From positions 43-64,042 of the forward strand of contig JBCCXT010000015.1 of assembly GCA_039191215.1 (NCBI GenBank): a stretch of 64,000 nucleotides of DNA, read 5' to 3'. This document shows, in pieces, positions 1 through 42,965 of the stretch. Made by a program: the position numbers and the translations under genes. Within the stretch, counting starts at the first letter, position 1; every line of letters begins with the position of its first letter. A model generated the notes under the pieces. The model had not been told where the DNA came from, ran no database searches, and saw only the letters and a list, made by a program, of their open reading frames with translations. The stretch is from Pseudomonadota bacterium. GTDB lineage: Bacteria > Pseudomonadota > Alphaproteobacteria > Rhodobacterales > Rhodobacteraceae.

Positions 1-94
1 TCGGAGGTCAGCGCCTCCCAGGCTGCCGTGGCGGTGCGGTCGAAATAAGCCTCGACCCGGTCGCGCGTTGCGTCATATGTGCGCGTGTCGGCCA

Positions 95-95
<1 letters not shown>
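1..95 (-). CDS. bchM: Mg-protoporphyrin IX O-methyltransferase, 5' fragment (runs off the window)
   Basis: Manual translation from ATG at 95, overlapping the bchL stop (TGATG): MADTRTYDATRDRVEAYFDRTATAAWEALTS, the BchM N-terminal YFDRTA..W..LTS motif; expected position after bchL. Confidence 0.9.
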
Positions 96-7823
<7,728 letters not shown>

Positions 7824-7878: not shown

Positions 7879-7896
7879 TGTCAATCCAAACTTACA
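7879..7896. promoter_or_regulatory. PpsR/CrtJ operator (TGT-N12-ACA) upstream of bchF
   Basis: TGTCAATCCAAACTTACA, exact consensus spacing. Confidence 0.85.
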
Positions 7897-7971
7897 CCTT
7901 TTTGGAAGCCTGGTTTGACATTTACGGGCCCGTTTAGGCCCTTCTTTGCAACGATGCCTGCTTTTACACGC

Positions 7972-7989
7972 TGTCAATTATATTTGACA
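7972..7989. promoter_or_regulatory. PpsR/CrtJ operator in the bchF-aerR divergent region
   Basis: TGTCAATTATATTTGACA, near-perfect palindrome matching TGT-N12-ACA. Confidence 0.87.
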
Positions 7990-10350: not shown

Positions 10351-10402
10351 CGTAAGGTTTAGTTTACACTTGCCTGGCGGAAGCTGTCACTTTAGGTTGA
10401 CA
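10351..10402. promoter_or_regulatory. Pair of PpsR operators upstream of bchG
   Basis: CGTAAGGTTTAGTTTACA (10351-10368, 1 mismatch) and TGTCACTTTAGGTTGACA (10385-10402, exact). Confidence 0.8.
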
Positions 10403-14402: not shown

Positions 14403-16322
14403 CTAGGCGCGCGCTTCGCCAAAATTGGCGGTCTCGATCCCCATTGCCCCAAGGGCGGTGCGCGCGATGTCATCCGCCGTCAGGCCGGCATCGGCGTACA
14501 TATCCGCAGGGCTGGCCTGGTCGATGAAGCGGTCGGGCAGGGTCATGGTGCGCACAGCAAGACCGCAATCGAGCAATCCGGCGCTTGCCAGGTGATGCAA
14601 AACCATGCCGCCGAACCCCAAAACCGCGCCTTGTTCGACGGTCAGCAACACATCGTGATCGGCCGCCAAGCCGTTGATCAGCTCAGTATCGAGCGGTTTG
14701 GCGAAACGGGCATCTGCAACGGTCACGCTGATGCCGCGCGCCGTGAGATCTTCGGCCGCACACAGTGCCTCCGCAAGATGCGCGCCAAAAGACAGGATGG
14801 CCACCTGGTTGCCCTCACGCAGGACGCGGCCCTTGCCAATTTCCAGTACGTCACCGGTTTCAGGCAGATCGATGCCGACACCCTCCCCGCGCGGGTAGCG
14901 CACCGCAATCGGGCCGCTGTCATGGGCGGCCATCGTCGCCATCATATGCACAAGCTCTGCCTCATCGGCGCAGGCCATCACACTCATGTTCGGCAGGGCG
15001 GACAGATAGCCAATGTCAAACGCGCCTGCATGGGTCGGCCCGTCAGCGCCGACAAGCCCGGCCCGGTCGAGGCAGAACCGCACGGGCAAATTTTGCAGTG
15101 CCACATCATGTACGATTTGATCATAGCCGCGCTGCAGGAAACTCGAATAGATCGCGCAGAACGGCTTTAGGCCGCCCGCCGCCATGCCTGCGGCAAAGGT
15201 TACGGCATGCTGTTCGGCGATGCCGACGTCAAAAACGCGTTTCGGATGGGCTTTGGCCAGGGCGGTCAATCCGGTGCCGCCAGGCATCGCGGCGGTAACG
15301 CCGACAATCTTTGGATCTGTGTCTGCAAGGCGGGATAGAGCCTTTCCAAAAACGCCAGTATAGCTTGGTGCATTGGGTTTTGACTTTTTCTGCTGGCCGG
15401 TGGCGACGTCGAATTTGGCAACGCCATGATAACAATCATCCGCCCCCTCGGCCGGCGCGTACCCTTTGCCTTTGACCGTGACGGCATGGATCAGAATGGG
15501 CTTGGTGGCCCGCGTCTTCGCCGCGCGCAACACGGTCAGAAGCTGGCCCATATCGTGCCCATCGATCGGGCCGACATAGTCAAACCCCAGATGGTCAAAC
15601 AGCGTGCCCTGACCCACGGCGCCGGTGACAAGCTGGCGCGCACGCTCGGCCCCGGCGCGCAGCGGCTCCGGCAGATGTGCGGCCATGTCATCGGCCATGT
15701 TCTTGAACGCCATGAACGGTGCATTGGCGTAAAGGCCCGACAGATAGCTGGACATGGCGCCGACGGGCGGGGCGATCGACATCTCATTGTCGTTGAGGAT
15801 CACAAAAAGCCGTCGGCCCTCCGCACCGGCATTGTTCAGCGCCTCATAGGCCATGCCCGCGCTGATCGAGCCATCGCCGATCACAGCGATTGCGTCCCCG
15901 GTTGCCTCACCCAGGTCACGCGCCATGGTGAAGCCAAGCGCGGCCGAGATGCTTGTTGAGGAATGTGCCGCGCCAAACGGGTCGTAGATGCTCTCGGCGC
16001 GCTTGGTAAATCCGCTCAGCCCACCCTTTTGCCGAAGCGTCCGGATCCGGTCACGTCGGCCGGTCACAATCTTGTGGGGATAACATTGGTGGCCGACATC
16101 CCAAATGAGCTTGTCGTAGGGCGTGTTAAAGGTGGCATGTATCGCCACGGTCAGCTCTACCACTCCAAGCGATGAGCCCAAATGCCCGCCGGTCTCGGAC
16201 ACCGCGGAGATCGTCTCGGCGCGCAATTCATGGGCGAGCTTGGCAAGATCGCGATCCGATAGACGTCGCAGATCGGCAGGGCTATCGACCTGATCGAGGA
16301 TCGGGGTGCTGGGTTTGGTCAA
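14403..16322 (-). CDS. dxs: 1-deoxy-D-xylulose-5-phosphate synthase (PGC-associated copy)
   Basis: [28 protein letters not shown] ThDP motif, [20 protein letters not shown]. Start taken as TTG 16322 after GGGAGGG. Confidence 0.95.
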
Positions 16323-16802
16323 TTTTCCCTCCCTTATTAAGCACTTGCCGAAATTCGGCACCAGGGCCCACAGAATGTGACAGCGGTGCTGACGATCTGC
16401 GTCGAACCTGGCCCGCTCATCGCCAATGCGCCGACGAACCGGCCGGCGTCACTCATAAGCGTTGCAATCGTGGTCGCCGCCGATCTTGGCCAGCTATGGT
16501 TTGTTGACGACCGCGTTCATCCCTTGCCATCGCTGTTGATAGCCTTGGTGACAAGTTCGGCCGTCGACCAAGGGCACTTCGTGGAAAGCCAGGCCGCAAT
16601 TTTGGGCAAAATGGCCTTTTCCAGCAAAGGCACGCAGCGGTCAGTGATGTCCTGGACCATGCGAATGCCAGGCCTGGCCGCCACCCAACTTGCAGTGACC
16701 CGCGCATGGTCGCAAAACGCCCGGCCTTTGTGACAAATACGCAATTCACACCCAAGGAATTGGCGAGGTATCTCATGAAGCGTTGTCTGTGTCGTTGCCA
16801 TC

Positions 16803-16829
16803 GCCGCGGGCGGGCGCGCCGCCCGCAGC
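16803..16829 (-). terminator. GC-rich stem-loop just downstream of pufA (position of the pufA-pufL intercistronic hairpin)
   Basis: GCGGGCGG (16806-16813) / CCGCCCGC (16819-16826), 5-nt loop, extendable to 11 bp with one G-U pair on the minus strand; no U-tract. Confidence 0.7.
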
Positions 16830-16844
16830 AGTTTTAGGGTTTGA

Positions 16845-17009
16845 TCAGAAGCCAGAAGTTGAGGCTGCTTGCTCGAACCAGTTCAGACCCGACGACAGGA
16901 CCACCAGGTGGATCATTGCCGCGAGGAGGAACAGGAACACGCCCTGGGCCACGAAAACGCGGCGCGGGTCGAAGATGAGCCAGATTTTGTAGAATTTAGA
17001 CAAAAACAT
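16845..17009 (-). CDS. pufA: LH1 antenna alpha polypeptide (54 aa, below the ORF-track cutoff)
   Basis: Manual translation [54 protein letters not shown]; BChl-ligand His; SD GAGGT. Confidence 0.97.
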
Positions 17010-17017
17010 GGCTCACC

Positions 17018-17176
17018 TCATGCTCCGCCGCCGAACCAAGGCGCCCAGATGTACGTGGCGACATGAGCTACAAGGCATGCACCGGCAAAGAGCCAGAGCC
17101 CGCTCAAATACACCGCGTGCAGCTCTTGCGCCTGCTCGTCGGTCAGACCCGTGAAAGACAGGTCACTTTCAGCCAT
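17018..17176 (-). CDS. pufB: LH1 antenna beta polypeptide (52 aa, below the ORF-track cutoff)
   Basis: Manual translation [52 protein letters not shown]; SD GGAGG. Confidence 0.97.
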
Positions 17177-17393
17177 AAACTTTCCTCCGGAACGTTAGAC
17201 TGATGCCGCGCACCCCGCGGCCGGGCCCCGACAAAGCCTCATTGCCCTGCCGGCAATCCGCCCGCCCAGGGCGAGCCCCAAGCGGATGGAAATCAGTCTC
17301 GGTTCCGGTCTGACCGAGGTTTATTTTGGCCATCCACGCGCGAGGTCTGACTTAGGCGCGCAGCGGCAATCTCGGGCCTGTTGCCTTGCGGCG

Positions 17394-17615
17394 TCAGGCC
17401 GAGAAGATCATGGGCGTGATGACACGCGCCTGGCTCCAGGCACGGGCCACGGGGCCCTTATTGGTAACGGGCCCGCCGCGCAGCGCGGCGATGGCCCAAG
17501 CGATCAGCGCAAGCGGCAGGGCTGCCGCAAAAATGATCGCGAAGTAAAAGGTGAACTCCGCCCGCGGCGGCTTTGACCGCGACGAAATGGGCGTGTTGGA
17601 TGTGGCGTCAGCCAT
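17394..17615 (-). CDS. pufQ: PufQ protein
   Basis: [10 protein letters not shown]...[20 protein letters not shown]; ATG 17615 overlaps the bchZ stop; SD GGAGG. Confidence 0.93.
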
Positions 17616-19098
17616 CCGTGCCTCCCTTTTTTTGTTGAGATGTCCCTGTTTGAGCCGCGCCCAGATGCGCGACGATGTCTCGCGCGACCCGGTCGGCCCC
17701 GTTTTCCAACGCAGCACGCTCGGCCGCATCGCGTAATGTCTTTGCCGCCGAGATACGCGTCAGCACCGGATGCTCAGCGACAATCCGGTCCAGCAGCTGC
17801 TGCGCGTCGGCATCCCAGGGAAAGTCCCGCTTCAGCGTCGCAGGCGTTGCTTCGGCGGCATCAAGCTGGGCGCCCAAAGGCAGGATGTGGAACAGCGCAT
17901 CGAAGAGCCCGTTGCAGATCTCCTGCAAAAGATAGGCGGCACCGGAATAGCCCATGAACGGCGTGCCAATCGCGCGGCGGATGGCGGCGCCCGGAAAGCT
18001 TGCCGGTATGAAGGCAGGCTGCGGGCCATGGCCGCCGCCAAGCTCTGCGAGATACATTTTTTCGTTGATCGACCCCAACACAACCAGCGGACGGGTCTGC
18101 GCGATCTGATCGCGCACGTCATCATTGTCGGTCTTCTGCCCGGCGATGCGGCCAACGGCGAAGGCACAGGGCAGGCCCAACTCGTCTTCCAAGTAATGGC
18201 GGATGCCACGGGTATAGGTTTCATTCGCGACGATGCCAAAGCTGGCCGTGGCAAAGAAATCCTGCGTGACTGAGCGCCAGAGGTCCCATACCGTTTTTAG
18301 GGTCGAGTGCTTTTCGCGGGCGATGAAAGGCTCCGGGTCGAGACCGAGCATAGCGCCCAGCTTGCGCAGGAATTTTGTTGTGGAATCAACGCCAATTGGT
18401 GCTTGCAGATAGGGTTTGCCCAAGACTTCCGCCAGCCCGCGGCCAAATTCGCGGTACATGACCACATTGGCATCGGCATTGACCAAGTTGCGCATCTCAG
18501 CCAGATGCGCGCCCATTGGCATGACCATGTTAAGCTCGGCTCCGATACCCTCAATCAGCCGACGGATCTCATGCAAATCGCTGGCCATGTTAAAGGTGCC
18601 ATACATCGGCCCGAGGATGTTGACGCGGGGCTTGGCGTCCGGATCGCGTTTCTTCTCCGGCGGCATGCGGCCCTTGGTCTGGCCCCATTCGGTGAAAAGC
18701 CAGGTCATCGCCCGGTCGGCGGCCTGCCACTGATCTTCATCGATGGTGCGCGGCAGGAAGCGTTGGATATTCGTGCCCTGGGGCGTGACCCCGCCGCCGA
18801 TCATCTCCGCGATCGATCCGGTCACCACAACGGCAGGCAGGGCCGGATCGAGCGTCTTCCAGGCGCGCTTCATCGCGCCTTCGGTACCGTCGCGGCCGAG
18901 CTCTTCCTCGCCCAACCCTGTGGTCACGATGGGCAGCTCATGCGGTGGCAGCGCGTCGGTGTAATGCAACACACTGGTCACGGGCAGGTTTTCGCAGCCA
19001 ACCGGGCCATCGATCACAACTTGCAAGCCCTTGACGGCGCAGAAGGCGTAAACCGCCCCCCAATAGCCCCCGGCCCTATCGTGATCCTGGATCAGCAT
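17608..19098 (-). CDS. bchZ: Chlorophyllide reductase subunit Z
   Basis: [37 protein letters not shown]. Confidence 0.97.
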
Positions 19099-22874: not shown

Positions 22875-22943
22875 TGTACGTTCGTCGGTACATCGCATCT
22901 GTCAGTTTATTCTGACAGTACGTTATGTCAATTGAAATAGACA
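22875..22943. promoter_or_regulatory. Three tandem PpsR operators in the bchC promoter
   Basis: TGT-N12-ACA at 22875-22892, 22900-22917 and 22926-22943 (gaps of 7 and 8 nt). Confidence 0.88.
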
Positions 22944-38398: not shown

Positions 38399-38533
38399 GC
38401 CAGGTCGTTGACAGAGCCTATCGAAACGCTTAGGTGCCAGGCATGCCCAGGGCGGTCCCGCCCGGACGGGCCTCCCAGTATCAACGACAAGCGCCGCTTC
38501 CAGCATTCTGCGCGGCCAATGGGCAATTTTTCG

Positions 38534-39805
38534 ATGAACGAAGACCGTTTGAACCTTTCTGATCTGAAGGCGCTGTCGCCGAAGGATCTCGTCAATATGG
38601 CTGAAGAACTCGAGATCGAGAACGCCTCGACCATGCGCAAGGGCGATATGATGTTCGCCATTCTCAAAGAGCGCGCCGAAGACGGATGGGAGATATCTGG
38701 TGACGGCGTACTGGAGGTATTGCAGGACGGGTTTGGCTTCTTGCGCAGCCCCGAGGCCAATTATCTACCGGGCCCGGACGATATTTACGTGTCACCGGAT
38801 ATGATCCGCCAGTATTCATTGCGCACAGGCGACACGGTTGAAGGCGTCATCACGGCACCCAATGAGAACGAACGTTATTTTGCGCTCGTTAAGGTCGCTC
38901 AGATTAACTTTGAGGAGCCGGAAAAGGCGCGCCATAAGGTCGCCTTCGACAATCTCACACCGCTTTATCCTGATGAGCGCCTGACGATGGAGATTGAGGA
39001 CCCGACGATTAAAGATCGGTCTGCGCGGATCATCGACCTGGTCGCACCGATCGGGAAGGGTCAGCGTAGCCTAATTGTGGCGCCGCCACGCACGGGTAAA
39101 ACCGTGCTTCTGCAAAACATCGCCCATTCGATCGAGGCCAATCACCCGGAATGTTATTTGATCGTTCTGCTGATCGATGAGCGTCCCGAAGAGGTGACTG
39201 ATATGCAGCGCTCTGTGAAGGGAGAGGTGATCTCCTCGACCTTTGATGAGCCTGCAACGCGGCATGTGGCGGTGAGTGATATGGTGATTGAGAAGGCCAA
39301 GCGACTGGTGGAGCATAAACGACATGTTGTGATCTTGCTCGACTCAATCACAAGACTTGGACGGGCCTTTAACACTGTCGTTCCTTCATCCGGCAAGGTT
39401 TTGACCGGTGGTGTTGATGCCAACGCGCTGCAGCGCCCCAAGCGGTTCTTTGGCGCGGCTCGAAACATCGAAGAAGGTGGATCGCTGACCATCATTGCGA
39501 CGGCGCTGATTGATACCGGCAGCCGTATGGACGAGGTAATCTTCGAAGAGTTCAAGGGCACCGGCAACTCCGAAATCGTTCTCGATCGCAAGGTCGCGGA
39601 TAAGCGCGTATATCCGGCGATGGACATCCTGAAATCAGGCACGCGGAAGGAAGATCTGTTAGTCGATAAGGTCGATTTGCAGAAGACCTACGTGCTGCGG
39701 CGCATCTTGAATCCGATGGGTACGACGGATGCGATCGAATTTCTGCTCTCAAAGCTGAAACAGACCAAGACAAATTCGGAATTCTTCGATTCGATGAACA
39801 CCTGA
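38534..39805 (+). CDS. rho: Transcription termination factor Rho
   Basis: [31 protein letters not shown]; start ATG 38534. Confidence 0.97.
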
Positions 39806-39808
39806 GCA

Positions 39809-41086
39809 GTGGACACTATTTGTGCACTGTCGAGTGCGCCTGGACGGGCCGGTGTGGCCGTCATTCGCGTATCTGGCCCCGGCGCATTTGGGATCTGCGC
39901 TAAGCTATGCGGTACCGTACCGGATCCGGGTCAGCACAAACTTCGAACCCTGAGAGGCTGCGAAAATCAAACCATCGACCAGGCTTTGGTCTTGTCATTT
40001 ACGGCGCCGTCGAGCTTCACGGGTGAAGATGTGGTGGAGTTTCAGACACACGGCGCGCGGGCCGTCATTGATGCGGTTCTCAGGGAGCTGACATATCTTG
40101 GCGCGCGACCGGCTGAGGCTGGCGAATTCACGCGCAGGGCGCTGGAGAACGACAAGCTGAGCCTCGGCGAGGTTGAAGGCTTGGCCGATCTTTTGGCGGC
40201 GGAGACAAAGGCGCAGTTGGATCAAGCCCATAAGGTATTGGCCGGGCAGCTTCATGAATTGGCGGAGGCGCTTAGGGCGCGCTTATTGCGGGGCCTGGCT
40301 CATTTGGAAGCGATGATCGATTTCGCAGATGAGGAAGTGCCGGAGGATCTTTCGCGCGAGGCTTTGGGTGAGTTGGACGAAGCCTTGTCCATGATCGCGA
40401 CGGAGATCTCTGGAAGCGTGGTCGCCGAACGGCTGCGCGACGGGTTTGAGGTGGCGATTGTCGGTCCGCCAAATGCCGGTAAATCTACGCTGTTGAACTA
40501 TTTGGCGGGACGCGACGCCGCCTTGGTATCCGAGGTTGCGGGCACCACGCGGGATGTGGTCGAGGTCCGAATGGATGTGCGCGGCTTGCCTGTCACTTTC
40601 CTTGATACGGCAGGGCTTCGACAGAGTGATGACGTTGTGGAACGCATGGGAATTGATCGCGCCATGAGCCGGGCGGCCGCCGCTGACCTGCGGGTGTTTC
40701 TTCTTTTGGATAGTGCATGGACCGGAAGTATACCGCGTAAAACGCAAGATGTAGTGGTTTTGGGGAAGGCAGATACTCAAAATGGTGATGTGTCGGGGGT
40801 AACAGGGAAAGGTGTCGATGTCCTTTTGGAGCGGATCCACGAGGTGCTCTCGGAGAAGGTCGCGTTGATTGGGTCGGCGACTCACTTTCGGCATCGCGAG
40901 GCGTTGGTACAGGCGGAGCGTGCTTTGGATGAGGCGCGCGCGGTCCTTTCGGAGGATGCGCATAGGGTAGAGGTGGCGGCCTACTATGTGAGGATGGCGG
41001 TGAGTGTTCTTGAAGGGCTAGTCGGGCGGCTTGACGTAGAGGCTGTGTTGGGCGAAATCTTTTCTTCCTTTTGTATTGGGAAGTAG
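39809..41086 (+). CDS. mnmE: tRNA modification GTPase
   Basis: DTI.ALS, SFTGED, GPPNAGKS, AGTTRD, DTAG, C-terminal FCIGK. Confidence 0.96.
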   Translation: MDTICALSSAPGRAGVAVIRVSGPGAFGICAKLCGTVPDPGQHKLRTLRGCENQTIDQALVLSFTAPSSFTGEDVVEFQTHGARAVIDAVLRELTYLGARPAEAGEFTRRALENDKLSLGEVEGLADLLAAETKAQLDQAHKVLAGQLHELAEALRARLLRGLAHLEAMIDFADEEVPEDLSREALGELDEALSMIATEISGSVVAERLRDGFEVAIVGPPNAGKSTLLNYLAGRDAALVSEVAGTTRDVVEVRMDVRGLPVTFLDTAGLRQSDDVVERMGIDRAMSRAAAADLRVFLLLDSAWTGSIPRKTQDVVVLGKADTQNGDVSGVTGKGVDVLLERIHEVLSEKVALIGSATHFRHREALVQAERALDEARAVLSEDAHRVEVAAYYVRMAVSVLEGLVGRLDVEAVLGEIFSSFCIGK

Positions 41087-41091
41087 AGGTG

Positions 41092-41107
41092 TGTTTCACG
41101 TGAAACA
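41092..41107. promoter_or_regulatory. parS centromere site
   Basis: TGTTTCACGTGAAACA, perfect consensus palindrome, overlapping the mnmG start. Confidence 0.95.
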
Positions 41108-42965
41108 CCAAGATGCGGATGTCCTCGTGATCGGCGGCGGCCATGCTGGCTGTGAGGCTGCCTACGCAGCCGCGCGCGCAGGCGCCAAGACCCTGCTACT
41201 CACGCTCAAACTGTCCGATATTGGTGTCATGTCGTGTAATCCAGCCATTGGCGGTTTGGGCAAGGGCCACCTTGTCCGAGAGATCGACGCGATGGGGGGT
41301 TTGATGGGCTTGGCTGCTGATCATTCAGGCATTCAGTTCCGCCTGTTAAATCGAAGAAAGGGGCCAGCGGTTCGTGGACCGAGAACTCAATCGGATCGTG
41401 TGCTTTACCGCCGCGCGGTGGCGGAGATCTTGGCCAGCCAAGGGAATTTGCGTGTCGTTGAGGGGGAGGCAGCTGCATTTTCAAGAGAAGGCGATGAGAT
41501 TCGCGGCGTTCGATTGGCTAACGGCGCGGAGATCAACGCAAGCGCGGTGGTGCTGACAACTGGCACGTTCCTCCGCGGCACCATTCACATCGGCATGCAA
41601 AGTCATGCGGGTGGTCGCATCGGCGATCCGGCATCCCACATGCTGGCAGATCAATTAAGAGAGATGGTTTCCGGAATTGGCCGATTAAAAACCGGAACCC
41701 CGCCAAGGCTGCGCAAAGACAGCATTGACTGGAACAAAACCGAGCTGCAACAAGCTGATACAAACCCAGCCATGTTTTCCTATCTTTCTGATCGGCCCTG
41801 TGTTGAACAAATCGCTTGTGGCATCACCCACACGAATGAAAAAACACATGAAATCATAGGGAATAACCTTGCGCGCTCAGCCATGTACGGCGGAAAGATC
41901 CAGAGCGTCGGGCCAAGATATTGCCCCTCGATTGAAGATAAGGTCACACGCTTTCAGGATAAAGCGAGTCATCAAATATTCTTGGAACCGGAAGGGCTTA
42001 CCAGCGACTTGGTATATCCTAACGGCATCTCAACATCGCTGCCCACGGATGTGCAGGTTTCTTACGTGCGGTCGATTGCGGGTTTGGAGAACGCGGTCAT
42101 CGCGCAACCAGGCTATGCGATTGAATATGATTTCGTTGATCCGCAGGTCTTGGACCATGGATTGCGGCTCAAGGATGTACGAGGCCTTTTTTTGGCCGGT
42201 CAAATCAATGGCACGACAGGGTATGAGGAGGCAGCGGCTCAGGGCCTTATCGCAGGTTTGAATGCGGCATTTGCTGCCACGGGCAGGCAGGCGATCTCCT
42301 TGGCGCGTAACGAGGCCTATATTGGGGTTCTGATCGACGATTTGATCACGCGTGGCGTGTCTGAGCCGTACAGAATGTTTACCTCACGCGCTGAATTCAG
42401 GCTTTCGCTGCGGGCAGATAACGCCGACCAGCGTTTGACGCCAAAAGCTCAGGAGCTTGGACTTATAACTGAGGAACGCAGAGCCAAGTTTTCGGCAAAG
42501 ATGGCTCTTTTGGAACAGGGGCACGCGCTCCTCAGGTCCAGCGACGCAACGCCAAGCGAGATTGCGGCGCACGGGATCGACATAAACCAGGACGGACGGC
42601 GACGGACGGCTGAGGCGTTATTATCATTCCCGAATATCGTTTTCGAGAAGCTGGAGCCAATTTGGCCCGCCTTGCAAGTGATTGATCCTGGAACGCGTGA
42701 CCAGCTAACCATCGAAGCGCTATATGCCCACTACATCTGGCGGCAACAGAAAGATGTCGAAAGCCTCCAAAAGGATGAGCGGCTCGTGATACCCGATTGG
42801 GTGATTTACAGTGAAATTGGCGGCCTATCGGCTGAGCTTACGATAAAATTGGAGCGCGTCCGCCCCCCTTCCATCGGCCACGCAGCCCGGATCGACGGCA
42901 TGACCCCAGCGGCTTTGACACTAATCCTTGCTCATTTGCGACGCGGCACGCGCGAATCGGCATGA
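41100..42965 (+). CDS. mnmG: tRNA uridine 5-carboxymethylaminomethyl modification enzyme (GidA)
   Basis: GGGHAG, MSCNPAIGG, LKTGTPPR, GPRYCPSIEDK, GQINGTTGYEEAA; GTG start at 41100. Confidence 0.97.
   Translation: MKHQDADVLVIGGGHAGCEAAYAAARAGAKTLLLTLKLSDIGVMSCNPAIGGLGKGHLVREIDAMGGLMGLAADHSGIQFRLLNRRKGPAVRGPRTQSDRVLYRRAVAEILASQGNLRVVEGEAAAFSREGDEIRGVRLANGAEINASAVVLTTGTFLRGTIHIGMQSHAGGRIGDPASHMLADQLREMVSGIGRLKTGTPPRLRKDSIDWNKTELQQADTNPAMFSYLSDRPCVEQIACGITHTNEKTHEIIGNNLARSAMYGGKIQSVGPRYCPSIEDKVTRFQDKASHQIFLEPEGLTSDLVYPNGISTSLPTDVQVSYVRSIAGLENAVIAQPGYAIEYDFVDPQVLDHGLRLKDVRGLFLAGQINGTTGYEEAAAQGLIAGLNAAFAATGRQAISLARNEAYIGVLIDDLITRGVSEPYRMFTSRAEFRLSLRADNADQRLTPKAQELGLITEERRAKFSAKMALLEQGHALLRSSDATPSEIAAHGIDINQDGRRRTAEALLSFPNIVFEKLEPIWPALQVIDPGTRDQLTIEALYAHYIWRQQKDVESLQKDERLVIPDWVIYSEIGGLSAELTIKLERVRPPSIGHAARIDGMTPAALTLILAHLRRGTRESA

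Follow-up and report, generated by a model that had tools for sequence, protein, structure and literature searches.

The photosynthesis genes of purple bacteria are usually seen as inherited or transferred as one large cluster, and the antenna-to-centre ratio is classically set by the differential decay of one pufBALM mRNA. In the clusters of Rhodobacteraceae, dxs normally stands directly after pufC or pufX. The separate loci of pufBA and pufLM in Chloroflexus aurantiacus are a further known arrangement. The canonical puf operons of Rhodobacteraceae are pufQBALMC-dxs and pufQBALMX-dxs (Brinkmann et al. 2018, PMC6052148; Liu et al. 2019, PMC6739100), and all pufC-lacking strains have pufX between pufM and dxs, after a single replacement (Brinkmann et al., PMC6052148). 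Citromicrobium sp. JL354 carries an incomplete second cluster, pufLMC-puhCBA, inside an integrating conjugative element (Zheng et al. 2012, PMC3338782), and the legend of Fig. 3B of a 2025 paper in Microbiome (PMC12661815) gives seven genomes of COR-cluster pelagic roseobacters with both pufLMX and pufLMC operons. Here, we analysed a window of 64,000 nt, which is the whole stretch of DNA under study, on contig C15 of a draft metagenome-assembled genome (G000; 145 contigs, 89% complete, 3.3% contamination). Among sequencing runs, the stretch was present in one marine metagenome study, with no RNA run listed.

The pufA-dxs junction and the pufC relic

The features of the window that bear on the junction are as follows, all on the minus strand.

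19098 to 17608, minus: bchZ, 496-aa ORF, closes bchCXYZ and overlaps the start of pufQ
17615 to 17394, minus: pufQ, Pfam PF05398 PufQ, E 6.5e-31
17176 to 17018, minus: pufB (LH1 beta), PF00556 E 2.6e-9
17009 to 16845, minus: pufA (LH1 alpha), PF00556 E 8.9e-15; NF040861 69.8 bits
16830 to 16802, minus: GC hairpin after pufA, 12 bp, all GC, T tract absent
16800 to 16781, minus: deletion junction, where homology to the PufC-type relative G003 breaks and then resumes
16779 to 16452, minus: pufC pseudogene relic, last 110 of 366 codons, with two frameshifts and an in-frame stop
16361 to 14403, minus: dxs, TIGR00204 E 1e-233
52087 to 49463, minus: mutS, NF003810 E 6e-299, a housekeeping anchor

We found that the gene order agrees with the canonical operons in having bchCXYZ-pufQ-pufB-pufA followed by a stable hairpin, with dxs-idi-bchP downstream. 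The three genes and the hairpin, all proposed from the sequence in the original prediction, were confirmed by ORFs, profile matches and RNA folding, with the pufQ start set at the ATG at position 17615. The match of pufB to NF040862 (59.7 bits) fell slightly below the 61-bit cut-off; its product is 96% identical to PufB of the sister species G004, and PufA is 96% identical to PufA of both G003 and G004. Identities to these two same-genus genomes were 87.5% for BchZ and 84-86% for dxs. A scan of the own genome for LHC proteins identified pufB and pufA as its sole antenna pair, and pufBA, pufQ and every bch gene seen were intact and conserved. A scan of the pufQBA surroundings for sigma-70-like promoter consensus found none, a scan that is uninformative for this family. 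An 81-nt stretch at the hairpin folds at -27.2 kcal/mol (z -2.0). The hairpin at 16802-16830 is a remnant of the pufA-pufL intercistronic region and, because of the puf mRNA biology of Rhodobacter, is presumed to form the 3′ end of the pufQBA transcript or to stabilise it.

In contrast with the canonical operons, neither pufL nor pufM lies directly after pufA. The gap from pufA to dxs is 483 nt, shorter than the approximately 520 nt first estimated, and holds no intact pufL, pufM, pufC or pufX. The earlier statement that none of the four was present in any frame thus stands for intact genes but not for remnants, as the spacer contains a PufC-like relic. In a tblastn search with PufC of G003 (366 aa), residues 257-271, 265-311 and 316-366 matched in frames 3, 2 and 1, with a summed E of 4.5e-17 over residues 257-366. 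One haem motif of the relic is split by a frameshift, and the other is without its first Cys. A 94-aa ORF at 16517-16801 matched Pfam PF02276 (CytoC_RC; E 3e-5) and NF040706 (E 6e-6), and a whole-genome HMM scan detected pufC at the spacer only, as three pieces. The intact tetrahaem cytochrome gene that stands between pufM and dxs in PufC-type operons is therefore absent.

The edges of the loss were located by blastn against G003, in which window 17200-16800 corresponds to L044 10475-10075, and window 16781-16709 to L044 7323-7250. The homology continues through the hairpin to about 16800, ends upstream of the pufL start, and resumes within the 3′ third of pufC, with about 2.75 kb missing from the window. 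Because the spacer holds a 3′ relic of pufC, these alignments indicate that a PufC-type cluster lost its pufL, its pufM and the first two thirds of pufC in a single deletion of about 2.75 kb.

A mis-join by the assembler at this junction, for which only the draft state of the genome speaks, is a practically negligible explanation. Such an error would not create a decayed pufC tail, and five other genomes also have no pufLM after pufA, with dxs directly next in three of them. Moreover, a Logan contig, from a second assembly of the probable source run, is unbroken across 16084-16853, from within dxs through the spacer and the hairpin; this contig comes from the same sample and is not independent of it, and its overlap with pufA is limited to 9 nt, so that it supports the junction without bridging the join to pufA. 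The relic and the recurrence of the split also dispose of the earlier suggestion of an artefact or recent accident.

A separate puhC-pufLMX cassette

A Photo_RC search of the own assembly returned two matches (E 2e-96 and 4e-95), both with open frames and no stops. These are the only pufL and the only pufM of the genome, and both lie outside the cluster, on the 7.5-kb contig C94, together with the following genes.

C94: puhC, ending 15 nt before pufL
C94: pufL, 282 aa, TIGR01157 432 bits against a cut-off of 266
C94: pufM, 307 aa, TIGR01115 498 bits against a cut-off of 364
C94, after pufM: pufX, PF11511 E 4.8e-13, 48.9 bits against a cut-off of 25

The product of pufL aligned over its full length with L chains of solved structures (E 4e-151), and PufX matched solved chain X of 8ygd (E 1e-5). 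The cassette measures about 2.7 kb and consists of two tandem PpsR-type palindromes, puhC, pufL (with its own ribosome-binding site), pufM, pufX and a strong intrinsic terminator, beyond which lies a convergent pseudoazurin gene. PuhC is taken here to be an RC-LH1 assembly factor. A search of the whole assembly for PufL, PufM and PufX, as had been proposed, therefore revealed a split puf operon. Since intact pufL and pufM, followed by pufX, are present in the same assembly, the idea of an LH1-only antenna without a type II RC is refuted, and the associated concern about pufM surveys overlooking the organism falls away; its placement in pufM phylogenies would instead be wrong. With a PufX gene and without an intact pufC, the own genome is like the derived half of the family, which uses PufX and not PufC. 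Unlike in the canonical operons, its pufLM are not behind pufBA and its pufX is not between pufM and dxs, nor does its whole cluster fall in the monophyletic PufX branch.

The TGT-N12-ACA sites of C94 number only two in 7.5 kb, 6 nt apart and 100-140 nt upstream of puhC, and the window contains 20 such sites against 6.6 expected. The palindrome pair is the best-conserved block in an otherwise diverged upstream region between G000 and G004. A site shortly upstream of pufL was found in all six genomes that carry the split, as a tandem pair in five; in G043 the sites are about 650 nt apart and flank puhC. These palindromes suggest co-regulation of cassette and cluster by PpsR. Upstream of the C94 puhC, the sigma-70-like consensus scan, uninformative for this family, detected no promoter.

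We infer that C94 and C15 belong to one organism, because cassette and cluster genes are each closest to G004. PufL and PufM of C94 are closest to those of G004 (90% and 93%), as are the C15 genes; the flanking gene tctA is 93% identical to that of G014, slightly above the 90% to G004. A binning contaminant would leave the C15 organism truly without L and M, either as an RC-less producer of pigment and LH1 or with its cluster being lost. The estimated contamination of 3.3%, the shortness of C94 and the failure to find puhA in the assembly could be read in this way, and the explanation is nevertheless highly improbable. In the sister species, a 101-kb contig holds the same cassette beside the same pseudoazurin gene, and a 304-kb contig holds the same cluster, likewise without pufLM; the own pufBA, pufQ and bch genes, so far as seen, have stayed intact and conserved. 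As for the H subunit, puhA, lhaA, puhB and most of bchM were not found in the own assembly. The missing puhA looks like an assembly gap, because C15 begins inside bchM and C3 begins inside acsF.

Distribution and ancestry of the split arrangement

The same split was found in five other species-level genomes, namely G004, G014, G041 (a single-cell genome), G042 and G043. In all five, bchYZ-pufQBA stands without pufLM, and a pufLMX cassette adjoining puhC lies elsewhere; the cassette contigs measure 32-94 kb, with 101 kb in G004, and the cluster contigs 56-473 kb. In three of the five, pufA is directly followed by dxs, and in none do pufLM follow pufA. Two further genomes contain both sets. G295 (98% complete) has its bchYZ-pufQBALMC-dxs intact on a 171-kb contig, with puhC-pufLMX on a second contig (109 kb), and G090 likewise carries an intact pufQBALMC and the cassette. 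Thus, puhC adjoins pufLMX outside the main cluster in seven genomes besides the own one. The resident puhC is intact in G001, G003, G041 and G295, absent in G014 and truncated in G004, and the only copy found in G043 is that of the cassette, which indicates that resident puhC was secondarily lost in some split genomes.

The remnants at the junction differ between lineages. G041 retains the first approximately 12 codons of pufL after pufA, and G000 retains the 3′ end of pufC; because one remnant is a pufL start and the other a pufC end, the resident genes appear to have been deleted independently in at least these two lineages. The spacers of G000 and G004 do not align with each other, and no relics of pufL, pufM or pufC were detectable in the spacers of G004, G014, G042 and G043.

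We then compared the trees of the separate components, among whose relatives are Rhodophyticola and Gymnodinialimonas. The six split genomes come together in the PufLM tree as a single clade whose sister is G001, within the PufX types. With the two-set genomes included, the eight cassettes and G001 make up a starred set of nine rows (100*), and the cluster-borne PufLM of G295 and G090 fall among the PufC types (99*). In the BchYZ tree, the pair of G000 and G004 groups with the PufC-type G003 (98*), and G014 groups with Gymnodinialimonas ulvae (99*). The PufBA tree follows the host cluster, and both BchYZ and PufBA of the own genome group with PufC-type relatives; all trees come from a quick search, and the deep branches of the BchYZ and PufBA trees are poorly resolved. 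Congruence was rejected by AU tests in both directions (p 1.8e-6 and p 3e-5). The split genomes occupy at least five separate starred places in the MutS tree, and cassette hosts are 57-67% identical in MutS as against 82-86% in PufL. Taken together, these results indicate that the cassette PufLM are a PufX-type set of an ancestry different from the resident PufC-type genes.

This ancestry bears on the proposal that pufLM(C) had simply been relocated. The RC genes are indeed uncoupled from LH1, as that proposal held, and the genome has a single pufL and a single pufM outside the cluster. However, the set is not native, with a PufX type displacing a PufC type, and a move of the organism's own pufLM within its genome is very unlikely. 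The lost set ended in pufC, and the out-of-cluster set ends in pufX. The own PufLM are 71-75% identical to those of G003, which by BchYZ is the nearest of the cluster relatives after the sister G004, as against 80-93% to cassettes in distant hosts, and grouping the C94 PufLM with G003 was rejected by the AU test (p 3e-5). Genomes with both sets also exist.

The explanation we consider probable is that a foreign-type cassette was gained and the resident pufLMC was then deleted, leaving a mosaic photosystem whose LH1 and RC genes are separately transcribed. The events would have started from a chromosomal PufC-type cluster with pufQBALMC-dxs, into whose host came a compact puhC-pufLMX cassette from a PufX-type lineage unrelated to that cluster. 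The cassette would have coexisted with the resident pufLMC, a stage as in G295 and G090, before the resident copies were deleted, so that bchCXYZ-pufQBA, the hairpin, a decaying pufC tail and dxs remained. In the resulting photosystem, L, M, PufX and PuhC would come from the cassette, and LH1 alpha and beta, PufQ and all pigment genes from the resident cluster, which presumably also supplies the H subunit. The LH1:RC ratio would then depend on two transcription units that share a repressor and not on the decay of one mRNA.

The opposite polarity, in which the hosts were PufX-type and a complete PufC-type cluster arrived later (for instance on a plasmid, then integrated), would give the same mosaic, with the cassette as the resident remnant. 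The old cluster would have decayed to a puhB/puhC-pufQ-pufLMX relic, and the incoming one would have lost pufLMC. Several observations agree with such a course. The cassettes of G014 (puhB′ and pufQ′), G042 (puhB′) and G090 (pufQ′) keep pieces of a former cluster, the order pufLMX-puhB′-puhC in G042 is the expected product of a dxs-to-puhA deletion in a normal cluster, mobile-element genes are absent beside the cassettes, and plasmid transfer of whole clusters is documented in Rhodobacteraceae (PMC6052148, PMC6739100). Yet we regard it as unlikely. The spacing between pufA and mutS is 31-33 kb in G000, G001, G003, G004 and G014, which indicates that the cluster lies at a conserved chromosomal site, and BchYZ mirrors MutS within the genus, as vertical inheritance of the cluster predicts. 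In addition, the cassette PufLM form one tight clade despite hosts that are distant by MutS, and the cassette flanks differ in every lineage, save for a pseudoazurin gene nearby in three genomes. That the cassette and not the cluster was incoming is inferred from synteny in one clade.

Comparison with known systems and implications

Like the block of Citromicrobium JL354, the cassette joins L/M genes with puh assembly genes in a compact block of foreign ancestry outside the main cluster, with pufLM contiguous with a puh gene on C94, and the two-set state recurs in G295 and G090. Unlike it, the block here has pufX and is without puhA, and no ICE genes were found within about 8 kb in the loci examined, whereas the JL354 block is part of an ICE, includes pufC and puhA, and occurs alongside a complete resident set. 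Such a resident pufLM, present in G295 and G090, is absent in the own genome, and with resident pufLM(C) deleted in six genomes the block is their only source of L and M. The two-operon state of the COR-cluster genomes is like the intermediate stage of G295 and G090 (PMC12661815); in the parts of that paper available to us, a separation from pufBA, a link to puhC, loss of the resident set or discordance was not found described. Compared with the transfers of clusters in Rhodobacteraceae, the moved unit is about 3 kb and not a whole cluster, and a PufC-type backbone here would work with an out-of-cluster PufX-type set. Chloroflexus aurantiacus likewise transcribes antenna and RC genes from different loci; this is an analogy only, as its phylum is another and it is not known to have a photosynthesis gene cluster, PufX, PuhC or the PpsR system. 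Two other candidates were set aside: HIMB11, considered as a named relative, has a normal pufQBALMC operon as published (PMC4148974), and in Loktanella vestfoldensis SKA53 some photosynthesis genes lie apart from the cluster, with a reported operon of type pufQBALM and no pufBA/pufLM split (PMC3176799).

The loci examined contained no integrase, transposase or conjugation genes and no tRNA up to about 8 kb from the cassettes (C94 itself spanning only 7.5 kb), and thus no transfer vehicle was identified; viral contigs scanned with PufL contained no relative, and so gave no sign of a phage-borne copy. The length of about 2.7 kb from operator to terminator would fit a gene-transfer-agent particle, the capacity of which suffices for DNA of this size. 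It is conceivable, though we hold it doubtful, that puhC-pufLMX is a horizontally spreading RC conversion cassette that repeatedly turns PufC-type pelagic roseobacters into PufX types. The periplasmic pseudoazurin may, under such a conversion, replace the four-haem PufC as electron donor; if true, a copper carrier in place of an iron-rich subunit would be useful in the iron-poor surface ocean.

The split arrangement was thus seen at several stages of a probable RC swap in related bacteria, in which a core cassette of about 3 kb (assembly factor, L, M and PufX) has a history apart from that of the other cluster genes. In Rhodobacteraceae, the switch from PufC to PufX has so far been described as one event at a fixed position, from which the cassette departs. 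Surveys based on pufM will misplace such organisms, and cluster-based screens may call them incomplete phototrophs. In these bacteria, L, M and PufX would have to work with the LH1 ring, and presumably the H subunit, of another lineage, and the antenna-to-centre ratio would have to be set across two loci. The mosaic would therefore be a ready-made experiment on subunit compatibility and on the role of PuhC.

The junction between pufA and dxs

The original prediction held that pufQBA stands directly before dxs with no reaction-centre genes between them, and that the organism might lack a reaction centre. The first point is right: the gene content agrees, and no intact pufL, pufM, pufC or pufX was found in the pufA-dxs interval of the window.

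Features of the window from bchZ to dxs
bchY, then bchZ at 17608-19098, minus strand: head of the minus-strand order
17394-17615, minus strand: pufQ (Pfam PufQ, E 6.5e-31)
17018-17176, minus strand: pufB
16845-17009, minus strand: pufA
16802-16830, minus strand: 12-bp, all-GC hairpin 3′ of pufA
between pufA and dxs, minus strand: 483-nt spacer
14403-16361, minus strand: dxs; idi and bchP come next, on the other strand

One Logan contig, from what is probably the source run, covers window 16084-16853 unbroken. The spacer had been taken to be free of PufC-like sequence, which was wrong, as family matches and a PufC alignment reveal an overlooked pufC relic. A 94-aa spacer ORF matched PF02276, the reaction-centre cytochrome (positions 222-268 of 310, E 3e-5), and also NF040706, and in a genome-wide HMM scan pufC-like sequence was found only in the spacer, in three pieces in different frames, one with a stop. 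When PufC of G003, a PufC-type relative, was used as the query, residues 257-271, 265-311 and 316-366 (the end) aligned with spacer frames 3, 2 and 1, respectively (summed E 4.5e-17). One haem-binding motif of the relic is split by a frameshift and the last is without its first cysteine. DNA homology to G003 continues from pufB across the hairpin until about window 16800 and restarts at 16781, within the final third of the G003 pufC. This break and restart shows that about 2.75 kb, comprising pufL, pufM and two thirds of pufC, was lost in a single deletion from a former pufQBALMC-dxs operon.

A separate puhC-pufLMX cassette

The assembly (a draft MAG, G000, of 145 contigs and 3.95 Mb, 89% complete with 3.3% contamination) contains exactly one pufL and one pufM, both on the 7.5-kb contig C94 and both above their cut-offs, which refutes the reading without a reaction centre.

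Features of contig C94, in order
minus strand: tctABC
between tctABC and puhC: 400-nt intergenic region
puhC: TIGR03054, 73.5 bits against a cut-off of 55
pufL, 15 nt after puhC, behind a GGAGG site: 282 aa, TIGR01157, 432 bits against 266
pufM: 307 aa, TIGR01115, 498 bits against 364
pufX: 77-aa PufX, PF11511, E 4.8e-13
6369-6956 (locus L003), minus strand, convergent with the cassette: pseudoazurin gene

Solved L chains aligned end to end with this PufL, and chain X of entry 8ygd aligned with this PufX. C94 has only two TGT-N12-ACA palindromes, which are separated by 6 nt and lie 100-140 nt in front of puhC, and 3′ of pufX there is an 11-bp GC stem with a T run after it; with these borders, the cassette is predicted to form a transcription unit of its own, about 2.7 kb long, with PpsR-type operators. 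No second antenna pair or LH2 genes were found in the assembly. Searches for puhA and for the C-terminal domain of bchM (PF07109) found neither; the H-subunit gene is probably missing because the bchM-lhaA-puhA-puhB(-puhC) stretch sits in an assembly gap, as contig C15 starts inside bchM (window 1-335) and contig C3 inside acsF. Some 4.6 kb of the cluster is thus unassembled, comprising the remainder of bchM, lhaA, puhA, puhB, possibly puhC, orf98 and the acsF 5′ end. Beside the cassette, TctA (L003 319-1836, minus strand) shares 93% identity with its G014 counterpart and 90% with the one in the sister species G004, with no close ortholog in the congeners G001-G003; the tct transporter itself may be mobile, or C94 may be mosaic.

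The option of an artefact was ruled out by the same split in five other genomes. G004, in the same GTDB genus, carries bchYZ-pufQBA-465 nt-dxs on a 304-kb contig and puhC-pufLMX-pseudoazurin on a 101-kb contig, and G014, from a different genus, carries pufQBA-194 nt-dxs on a 473-kb contig and puhB′-puhC-pufQ′-pufLMX on an 87-kb contig (primes mark extra copies). In a scan of one genome per species, pufL was without pufBA upstream at 4 of 80 loci with PufL relatives: those of G014, G041 (single-cell genome AH-326-E22), G042 (P01_C01_bin.51) and G043 (an uncultured 'Roseovarius' MAG), and the clusters of the latter three all have pufQBA with no pufLM behind. Within the genus of G000, the order is a normal pufQBALMC-dxs in G003 and a normal pufQBALMX-dxs in G001, and pufL was not found in G002. 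Separately, the pufL match of G017 (63% complete; contig C5, 57.5-59.3 kb; L026, L038-L041) lies in four or five pieces, which suggests a frameshifted or decaying gene.

Discordant histories of cluster and cassette

In quick-search trees, the two parts of the system group differently. The PufL+PufM tree (57 genomes) united the six split genomes in one clade (SH-aLRT 81), sister to G001 (99, starred) within the PufX-type group, and placed G003 among PufC types with Rhodophyticola and Gymnodinialimonas. The BchY+BchZ tree placed G003 sister to (G000,G004) (98, starred) and G014 sister to Gymnodinialimonas ulvae (99, starred), with the remaining split genomes scattered. Two constraints failed in AU tests: BchYZ rejected the split genomes and G001 as one clade (delta lnL 225, p 1.8e-6), and PufLM rejected G000+G004+G003 (delta lnL 183, p 3e-5). 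With MutS as species proxy, the genus resolved as (G001,((G000,G004),(G002,G003))), while G043 stood by Roseovarius conchicola, G042 by G021, G014 by another lineage and G041 distant; starred branches force at least five changes. PufB+PufA, although short sequences, followed the host cluster, with G000 and G004 beside G003, G014 beside Gymnodinialimonas and G043 beside PufC-type Roseovarius. Between G000 and G014, G041, G042 and G043, MutS is 57-67% identical and PufL 82-86%. The pufA-mutS distance is 31-33 kb in G000, G001, G003, G004 and G014, and the cassette flanks share nothing across lineages save a pseudoazurin gene in G000, G004 and G041. From the trees, AU tests, identities and genomic context, the cluster backbone appears to be the resident part and the cassette the newcomer, at any rate in this clade. 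As a further observation, G001 has pufLMX in the normal place (L043) and PufLM sister to the cassette clade, and its BchYZ groups with clusters of its own genus, including that of G003; it may represent an in-place replacement or the cassette source lineage.

When 400 genomes of the family were scanned for reaction-centre proteins, three of them showed four full matches each. G295 (98% complete, 1% contamination) has an intact bchYZ-pufQBALMC-dxs-idi-bchP on a 171-kb contig and a second set, puhC-pufLMX, on one of 109 kb; both sets recur in G090 (a 66% complete MAG), with a pufQ′ copy and pseudoazurins adjoining the cassette. Their cassette PufLM fell in the starred nine-row set of eight cassettes plus G001 (100), and their cluster PufLM among PufC types (99, starred). 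This two-set state agrees with a remark in the literature on seven COR-cluster genomes with both pufLMX and pufLMC operons (PMC12661815). In the nearly closed relative G111, a normal pufQBALMX cluster is accompanied by a distant second reaction-centre set on a 104-kb replicon (contig C3, L188), with puhA-puhB by pufC-pufM-pufL (63% and 51% identity), which resembles the Citromicrobium incomplete cluster.

Deletion remnants differ by lineage: G000 retains the pufC 3′ end, and G041 retains, after the pufA hairpin, a ribosome-binding site and the first ~12 pufL codons (MVLLSFQRKYR...); no pufLMC remnants were detectable in the spacers of G004, G014, G042 and G043. Resident puhC is intact in G041, G295, G001 and G003, absent from the G014 cluster and reduced to its last 69 codons in G004, and the sole copy found in G043 is that of the cassette; by gene content, resident puhC is undergoing loss too. 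The extra puhB′ and pufQ′ of some cassettes and the order pufLMX-puhB′-puhC in G042 suggest that the cassette began as a remnant of a second, PufX-type cluster. No transfer vehicle was identified at the loci searched.

Previously, pufX was described as always lying between pufM and dxs, with one pufC-to-pufX replacement (Brinkmann et al., PMC6052148), and mixed PufC/PufX genera were explained by whole-cluster transfer on replicons (Liu et al., PMC6739100). The closest precedent is the compact pufLM+puh block of foreign origin in Citromicrobium JL354; that block includes pufC and puhA, is located in an ICE and occurs alongside the resident set (PMC3338782). In the literature searched, of incomplete coverage, neither a pufBA/pufLM split in this family nor a displacement series of this kind was found.

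Predicted regulation and function of the split system

The cluster holds the LH1, PufQ and pigment genes, and the cassette holds those for L, M, PufX and PuhC. Each of the six split genomes has PpsR-type palindromes a short way upstream of pufL, arranged in five of them as a tandem pair, and in a comparison of G000 with G004 no other block in front of puhC is as well conserved. The whole window has 20 TGT-N12-ACA sites against 6.6 expected, with clusters at 22875-22943, 7879-7989 and 10385-10402, a pattern that fits an intact PpsR regulon. Beyond the cluster lie rho, mnmE and mnmG (window 38408-42965), a set often near the chromosomal origin, and the cluster may be close to oriC.

The bchCXYZ/puf promoters would read pufQBA, with the retained hairpin ending or protecting the transcript, and puhC-pufLMX would form a second transcript under the same repressor. 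PuhC is known from Rhodobacter capsulatus genetics to act in RC-LH1-PufX assembly or reorganisation, and it may travel with L and M because it helps in this step. In G000, G004 and G041 the cassette has a pseudoazurin gene beside it, and in G090 two are close by. In this small sample of related genomes, pseudoazurin (TIGR02375) was present in the six split genomes and PufX-type G001, and none was detected in G002, G003, G021, Rhodophyticola, Gymnodinialimonas or G052; it could be a copper electron donor for the PufC-less centre.

Taken together, the genes of a draft MAG with a short contig C94 and an unassembled puhA region, read alongside quick-search trees, point to a puf system that became split and mosaic when a reaction-centre cassette was gained and the resident genes were lost; its complex would combine cassette L, M and PufX with resident H and LH1.
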